From Escherichia coli (GTDB taxonomy: Bacteria > Pseudomonadota > Gammaproteobacteria > Enterobacterales > Enterobacteriaceae), in assembly GCF_009931435.1 (NCBI RefSeq), contig NZ_CP043414.1: DNA of 64,000 nucleotides; one strand, 5' to 3'. Numbering within the stretch: the first letter of the stretch is position 1; each line of letters begins with the position of its first letter. Shown in pieces: positions 6,195 through 7,256 of this stretch. The translations under genes and the position numbers were made by a program. The notes beneath the pieces are model-generated. The model worked only from the letters and a program-made list of their open reading frames with translations. It made no database searches and had not been told where the DNA came from.

Positions 6195-7256
6195 TTAACC
6201 CTGCTTGAATACCTCATCATTCGTCAAAATATTAATAGCGATGTGCCGTATCCCTGAAAATAATTCTGCTGCATTTCCTCTTCTTATTTTGCAGTCGTCT
6301 TCATTCATTACCACGTCCAGACGCCAGTGCAGCTTATTCTCCACGTGCCAGTGGTTTCGGATTGCTGTGGCGAACTTCTCTGCGGTTAAATCAGCAGAAC
6401 TGATATAATATCTGACCGTCATTTCTGGCTCTTTCTTTTGTTCTGCTATTATTGACCGAAAGGAGACTGCCACGCATAATTTCTTCAGACCTTTCCATTC
6501 AAACGTGAAATCAATAAGTTCATCAGGGACATCGCAAACAATGTGAAGACGGATTTCTTCTCTGCCGTGACTCTTTTCACTAATTGCGTAACTGTCATGC
6601 TCTGGATTATTTAATTCTTTCAGCGGAAATTTTTCCTCGAAGCCTTTATTTAGCCGCCCCTGGTTTCCTTTTACAGCGAATAAATAATCACCTCCCTGTT
6701 TTTGTATCTTCTCTGCAATATCTTTCTGGCAACCCATCGCATCAGTTGTGATGATTTTTCCTTTAATATCCAGCATGTTAAGAAGTTCTGGGATAGCTGT
6801 AATCTCATTGGATTTCTCATCCGTCTTGATCTGTCCGATGACCAGACTGTGCATTGTTGAGAACGCACTAATGACATGAATCGCTCCCCTGCGGCGACTC
6901 TTGTCATAAGAGTGCCGGAGCGTTTTTCCATCAATTGCAATGACGTCTTTATCATCTGAAGAATGGCAGTCACGCATCCAGTTAATAAAGCACTCATGAA
7001 ATTTTGCAGGACTGATACAGGATACAACTTTGGCAATGATATCGTGAACAGGAATACCATTTTCAAAATCACCATATCACTTCAAAAAATCGAGATGTGT
7101 TTCCCAAAAATTCGCTATATTTTCCTATCCTTCTGCACCAAAAATAACGGCACAAATAGCCAACAGTAGAATATCCGATAATTTATGCTCCACTTTCCAG
7201 GCTTGTCTGTAATCGGGGATAACAGAAATATGTTCCATCAATTTTTTAAGTACCAT
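6195..7256 (-). pseudogene. H-repeat-associated (ISAs1-family) transposase, disrupted
   Basis: Translation matches the H-rpt/YhhI-type transposase ([30 protein letters not shown]...[27 protein letters not shown]...); in-frame TAG after ...AVIFGAEG near 7127 and a frame change near the 3' end (the ...[16 protein letters not shown] tail is in another frame). AGGAG RBS before the ATG at 7254-7256. Confidence 0.8.

Follow-up and report, generated by a model that had tools for sequence, protein, structure and literature searches.

The 64,000-nt stretch of Escherichia coli DNA analysed here (the window) carries a minus-strand gene at 6195–7256 that a first, sequence-only reading had described as a decayed H-repeat (ISAs1-family) transposase gene inside an eroding Rhs element. 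The locus raises the question of whether this gene is truly dead, by which lesions, and how much of its surroundings shares in the decay. We place a probability of about 0.92 on the reading that, in a divergent E. coli lineage, the ydcC site of the RhsE locus is occupied by a dead copy of ISEc1, an H-repeat of the ISAs1 family.

The limits of the element were set where homology to other copies stops, and its termini were read directly, the 11-nt repeats being too short to show among the 25 inverted-repeat pairs listed.

6111–7400, minus strand: complete ISEc1/H-repeat element, 1290 bp.
7390–7400, minus strand: left terminal inverted repeat CAGGGAAAGAT, pairing with the right end at 10 of 11 bases.
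6111–6121, plus strand: right terminal inverted repeat CAGGGCAAGAT, overlapping the ancestral stop codon (6121–6123).

Over ~1290 nt, intact copies in E. coli shared 96–98% identity with the element (6111–7400); among them is K-12 ydcC, whose product is annotated as "H repeat-associated putative transposase". Alignment with the K-12 ydcC element (1291 bp) gave 96.4% identity across 1291 aligned columns with one gap. At least 80% of the query was covered in 4,935 of 5,426 complete E. coli genomes, at thousands of places and with 95–98% identity, and the E. coli matches were annotated either as "ISAs1-like element ISEc1 family transposase" (PGAP; 97–98% identity) or as ydcC/yhhI. A chance open reading frame was ruled out by the 96–98% identity to thousands of ISEc1 copies over this length. 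The 378-aa translation obtained after repair of three lesions (listed below) matched the NCBIfam model NF033564 ("ISAs1 family transposase") with 403 bits against a cutoff of 70, and contained the Pfam domains DDE_Tnp_1_assoc (PF13808, aa 8–94, 103.8 bits) and DDE_Tnp_1 (PF01609, aa 102–343, 107.1 bits). The H-repeat identity proposed earlier is borne out by these matches. The domains, the identity over the full length and the terminal repeats agree, and on these sequence characters the element is a member of the ISAs1 family, ISEc1, by descent.

Like other members of the ISAs1 family (prototype ISAs1, Aeromonas salmonicida), the element is ~1.3 kb long, ends in short inverted repeats and has one transposase gene, for a DDE enzyme of ~380 aa whose N-terminal domain is DDE_Tnp_1_assoc; it differs from the family in that the window copy is predicted to be non-functional and no target-site duplication is visible. 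No direct repeat was found at the flanks (...GCTGATAGG / element / GGTGTTTATAT...), nor at two comparison copies from strain SWHEFF_68, so its absence here carries no weight. The element is the only H-repeat copy within the 64-kb window. A scan of genome contigs with a conserved 42-mer returned only five loci, in other species and MAGs, and an Rfam scan of 4800–12500 gave no match.

The condition of the transposase gene was established by alignment with nine other copies: four at the same position (SWHEFF_68, 2017-02-2CC, WL297 and 2013C-4282), three further copies (SWHEFF_68, 2017-02-2CC and 19KM1831) and two from other taxa. Annotations describe eight of the nine as intact; the genome record behind the ninth is unannotated. 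A single uninterrupted frame of 378–379 aa is present in all copies annotated as intact. At the same position, ydcC is annotated as intact in 2017-02-2CC, WL297 and 2013C-4282, and the transposase is intact in 2014C-3075. The window copy has the following features:

6121–7256, minus strand: transposase pseudogene, with an ancestral frame of 378 codons and a present length of 1136 nt.
7125–7127, minus strand: nonsense codon 44 (W44*), TGG to TAG through a G-to-A change at 7126, where nine of nine comparison copies have G.
7077–7079, minus strand: nonsense codon 60 (Q60*), CAA to TGA through two adjacent substitutions, as aligned to the comparison copies.
6204–6205, minus strand: 1-bp deletion, AAGGCAGG to AAGCAGG, shifting the frame at codon 351/352; the G is kept in nine of nine comparison copies.
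6195–6197, minus strand: premature TAA brought in by the frameshift, with loss of the last 27 residues.
6198–6977, minus strand: longest surviving open reading frame, 260 aa from Met-94, which keeps the DDE core, is missing both the N-terminal domain and the C-terminal 27 residues, and matches NF033564 only from profile position 66 on.

Read from the ATG at 7256, the minus-strand frame runs for 43 codons to the TAG (7127–7125), meets the TGA (7079–7077) 16 codons on, and is then open to the TAA at 6197–6195. The C-terminal 27 residues of the intact protein are found in another frame downstream of the deletion. The in-frame TAG after about 43 codons and the frame change before the C-terminal tail, both reported by the sequence-only reading, were thus located, the latter as one missing G at 6204/6205; the second in-frame stop had been missed, and the lesions number three rather than two. 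Of the span first given, the start at 7256 stands, but the other limit, 6195, is where the premature stop lies; the ancestral frame continued to 6121, within an element that extends from 6111 to 7400. The failure of the intact-frame test makes this copy a pseudogene, and the earlier conclusion that it cannot make an intact transposase is upheld by the two nonsense codons in the N-terminal domain together with the C-terminal frameshift. Because both stops lie in DDE_Tnp_1_assoc, translation from the native start would end in a 43-residue peptide.

The deletion lies in a 2-base run and not in a long homopolymer. A partial orthologous copy in E. coli 2020CK-00188, covering the last 523 nt of the gene up to the point where that record starts, keeps the G, which marks the deletion at codon 351/352 as derived. 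At codon 60, one database variant has arginine (FLKRYGDF), and CGA is a possible intermediate on the way to TGA.

The surroundings of the element identify the locus. Genes in the window run in the order narY'-narW-narV-yddE-nhoA-yddH, a 240-aa open reading frame, the H-repeat, an rhs start fragment, a 149-aa open reading frame, rhs, vgrG, yncH, yncG and ansP. Synteny with K-12 and with strains SWHEFF_68, 19KM1831 and 2014C-3075 places this at the RhsE position, where K-12 has the rhsE and yncI pseudogenes beside an intact ydcC. The neighbouring features are:

12344–14488, minus strand: vgrG (type VI secretion spike), upstream of rhs, with Phage_GPD, Phage_base_V and Gp5_trimer_C domains.
8025–12277, minus strand: main rhs gene, with a Pfam RHS domain, split into open reading frames of 1022 and 431 aa.
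7563–8012, minus strand: 149-aa open reading frame directly downstream of the rhs tip, 35% GC, presumed by position only to be an immunity gene.
7401–7486, minus strand: 86-nt start of a second rhs gene in tandem (rhs2), cut off exactly at the left end of the H-repeat (7401/7400).
5271–5993, minus strand: AT-rich (30–35% GC) 240-aa open reading frame between the right end of the H-repeat and yddH, in the place of pptA in K-12.

Comparison of the main rhs gene with its intact orthologue in E. coli 19KM1831 revealed a 1-bp deletion near 9327 (CACCGCC to CACGCC, one C lost), which explains why the gene now appears as overlapping 1022-aa and 431-aa frames. The type VI effector gene beside the H-repeat is thus probably also a pseudogene, as judged from this alignment. 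The DPIGL demarcation is present in the 431-aa frame. GC content follows the classic Rhs pattern, with 61–68% in the rhs core and 35–36% in the tip and the downstream open reading frame; the H-repeat itself has 38–43%. The variable tip that follows DPIGL (8025–8560) contains a HEFAH (HExxH) motif and gave a weak, sub-threshold match to Peptidase_M91 (E = 0.041); the tip may be a metallopeptidase-type toxin. The 149-aa frame (7563–8012) has no family match in Pfam or NCBIfam, and its counterpart is a hypothetical protein at the same position in 19KM1831 and 2014C-3075. The claim that the transposase gene lies inside an eroding Rhs element holds, given the adjoining vgrG, rhs core and tip and immunity-like frame, the 1-bp rhs deletion and the reduction of rhs2 to 86 nt. 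Taken together, the H-repeat lesions and the frameshift in the main rhs gene suggest that the whole Rhs accessory element is decaying.

The two flanks of the H-repeat do not belong together. On the left, the 86-nt fragment matches the beginning of rhs2, without a difference in 19KM1831 and almost perfectly in 88-3493. The right flank does not continue rhs2; its junction with the H-repeat is common to 2017-02-2CC, WL297, 2013C-4282 and 2020CK-00188. With the start of rhs2 on one side and unrelated AT-rich DNA on the other, the element probably marks the junction of a rearrangement or deletion that removed the rest of rhs2. A search for the rhs2/H-repeat junction among 5,426 complete E. coli genomes returned no record covering at least 80% of it. 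We infer from these flanks that the H-repeat sits at a lineage-specific rearrangement junction, and the likeliest routes to the loss of rhs2 are recombination between two H-repeat copies or an IS-adjacent deletion. The 240-aa frame on the right (5271–5993) has no match in Pfam or NCBIfam; in four related strains its conserved counterpart is a hypothetical protein of 211 aa (WP_032184207.1).

Identity to other genomes also varied along the window. The nar–yddH side (1–4900) was only 90–95% identical to ~5,400 E. coli records and 96–98% identical to a handful, and the ydc side (14542–32500) reached ~95.5% with typical E. coli and 100% with 2020CK-00188. From these values the host looks like a member of a divergent E. 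coli lineage. Against 2020CK-00188, identity was 99.97% over 14542–29636 but 97.3% over 1–6642, a contrast that places a recombination boundary within the Rhs/H-repeat locus. The chromosome record of 2020CK-00188 (NZ_ABACVG020000001.1) is linear; its first bases lie within the orthologous ISEc1 gene and its last ones close to vgrG/rhs, which indicates that its assembly broke at this repeat-rich locus.

The copy-specific changes were strongly clustered. Compared with the nine other copies, 15 nucleotide changes were unique to the window copy, and the codon-level changes among them were T33A, S39F, W44*, D46N, E48A, D49N, Q60*, T73I, R76K, H87H, A205G, K348E, the codon 351/352 deletion and A362T. 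Eleven of 12 unique codon changes were nonsynonymous or nonsense and one was silent; this excess of protein-altering changes fits a lack of purifying selection, without amounting to proof of it. Such a copy, lacking an active transposase, would be evolving neutrally. Most of the changes fall into one short segment:

6996–7160, minus strand: patch of clustered copy-specific substitutions at codons 33–87, inside DDE_Tnp_1_assoc, with 11 of the 15 unique nucleotide changes within 165 nt.

Codons 33–87 hold 10 of 12 unique codon changes, including both stops. Clustering as strong as this is not predicted by uniform neutral decay, and an extra process is needed: candidates are a tract of gene conversion, the homogenisation of all the rest of the element, or a burst of mutations at this site. 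The changes in the patch are mainly G:C-to-A:T transitions on both strands. Adenine-specific (DGR-like) mutagenesis was considered as the origin of the patch and is ruled out by this spectrum.

The first two candidates bear on how the stops arose. They may have entered by gene conversion, either as a tract over codons 33–87 from a decayed or more distant H-repeat copy, or as the remnant of an old pseudogene otherwise overwritten by an intact copy; the element would then be a mosaic. We consider this possible, if on balance rather unlikely, as an account of the stops. In its favour, the segment 7256–6990 diverges by 6.0–7.5% from E. coli copies, compared with a mean of 3.2% among the intact E. 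coli copies themselves in the same segment, while the 5' untranslated segment differs from the closest copies by 0–1.5% and codons ~90–335 from the closest copy by 0.3–0.5%. The clustering of the unique changes has a binomial P of ~2e-5 to 7e-5, and the different histories of the left and right flanks fit recombination between H-repeat copies. Against it stands the failure to find a donor: the best match in a nucleotide search of 5,426 E. coli genomes reached 94.6%, and the repaired N-terminal 111 aa, compared with 5.8 billion proteins, found a best match of 92%, with the patch residues in none of the five aligned top matches. An exact 26-mer from the patch had no match in metagenome contigs, and K-12 yncI is only 66% similar. 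For the patch itself there are two possible origins: old decay that outlasted a homogenisation of the surrounding element, in which intact copies served as conversion donors, or the import of a tract from a copy that has not been sampled. The patch does not extend beyond the N-terminal domain, which is of a DNA-binding type, and has nearly identical ISEc1 sequence on either side. It is quite improbable that it is a conversion tract from an unsampled, divergent H-repeat lineage or the footprint of a local mutational process that left an interfering, DDE-only product of 260 aa.

The reading of the copy as a dead ISEc1 gene also presupposes that the lesions are real, and we consider it very improbable that they are sequencing or assembly artefacts in a gene that is in fact intact. 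Repeats abound at the locus, and the break in the closest public genome, 2020CK-00188, falls exactly there, which marks the region as hard to assemble; no more than 3.2 kb separates the 1-bp deletion of the H-repeat from that of the main rhs gene, and either could be an assembly error. However, only one of the three lesions is a deletion; the others are base substitutions, one of them double, set amid 10 further copy-specific substitutions that match no other H-repeat copy. A collapse of several copies into a consensus could not have created them. Both deletions are in 2-base runs rather than long homopolymers, and the adjacent 15,095 nt show no indels and four mismatches relative to the independent assembly of 2020CK-00188.

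With the lesions accepted, a product might still come from the 260-aa frame (6977 to 6198), translated as a DDE-core protein that, like the inhibitor protein of Tn5/IS50, would damp the transposition of other copies of ISEc1. The frame has an internal Met start and keeps the whole DDE_Tnp_1 region. Transposition of H-repeats has not been observed, according to the E. coli W genome paper (PMC3032704), and such an inhibitor would have little to inhibit. No conservation of such a form was found, an exact look-up of the product returned no record, and the C-terminal 27 residues are missing. We regard this as a slender prospect.

Some insertion sequences, such as those of the IS1 and IS3 families, use programmed -1 frameshifting. 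Continued expression of the gene here by recoding (stop-codon read-through or programmed frameshifting) has a negligible probability, as the intact copies all encode one uninterrupted frame, both TAG and TGA would have to be read through and a +1-type correction added, and the lesion sites are conserved in no other copy.

As a dead ISEc1 copy, the element would be a passive relic. Its ends are intact, so that at most it could be mobilised in trans or serve as a patch of homology for recombination between H-repeat copies.

Among the closest known counterparts is the K-12 ydcC element, with which the window copy has its terminal sequences and its chromosomal neighbourhood (rhs ... H-repeat ... 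yddH-nhoA-yddE-narV) in common. Unlike K-12 ydcC, with its intact frame of 378 codons, the window copy has W44*, Q60*, the 1-bp deletion and the divergent patch at codons 33–87. The flanks differ as well, with the start of rhs2 on the left and the 240-aa frame on the right in the window, where K-12 has pptA. K-12 yncI is likewise a decayed H-repeat-type transposase gene at RhsE, but it belongs to a far more distant H-repeat lineage (~66% identity over 643 aligned nt), and it sits beside ydcC, whereas the window copy occupies the ydcC position itself. The abundant 194–195-aa "H repeat-associated protein" entries in public E. coli genomes are, like the window copy, inactivated ISEc1 copies; their frameshift lies near codon 115–120, whereas the lesions of the window copy form another set, unique so far. 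Defective H-repeat genes in Rhs elements are therefore already known, from yncI at RhsE and from many 194–195-aa ISEc1 products: the allele, with its lesions and its left junction, is unique so far, and the kind of object is familiar.

For annotation, the gene should be entered as a pseudogene with three lesions rather than two, the element as 6111–7400, and the neighbouring rhs gene as frameshifted. Beyond correct annotation the case matters little, being one of ordinary genome decay. With it there is one more case of rhs, an rhs fragment and an H-repeat decaying together in an Rhs accessory region, and an H-repeat at a rearrangement junction agrees with the long-standing picture of Rhs loci. 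On a small scale, the clustered substitutions illustrate how IS copies may evolve as mosaics.

Several minor observations were made on related copies. A large share of the public ISEc1 N-terminal matches listed were proteins of 194–195 aa with an out-of-frame tail from about residue 115–120, which suggests that one recurrent frameshifted form of ISEc1 is widespread in E. coli. A group II intron reverse transcriptase/maturase gene (ltrA) lies near the left end of the H-repeat in three related RhsE loci, at 11323–12645 in L002 (2017-02-2CC), 8565–9887 in L003 (WL297) and 8566–9888 in L004 (2013C-4282); the left end in L003 and L004 differs from that of the window copy over its first ~20 nt. A second variant of the left terminus was seen in E. 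coli 2014C-3075 (about 7880–7935), where a 25-nt left-end sequence is tandemly duplicated (CAGGGAAAGATCACGTAACGCTGCT twice).
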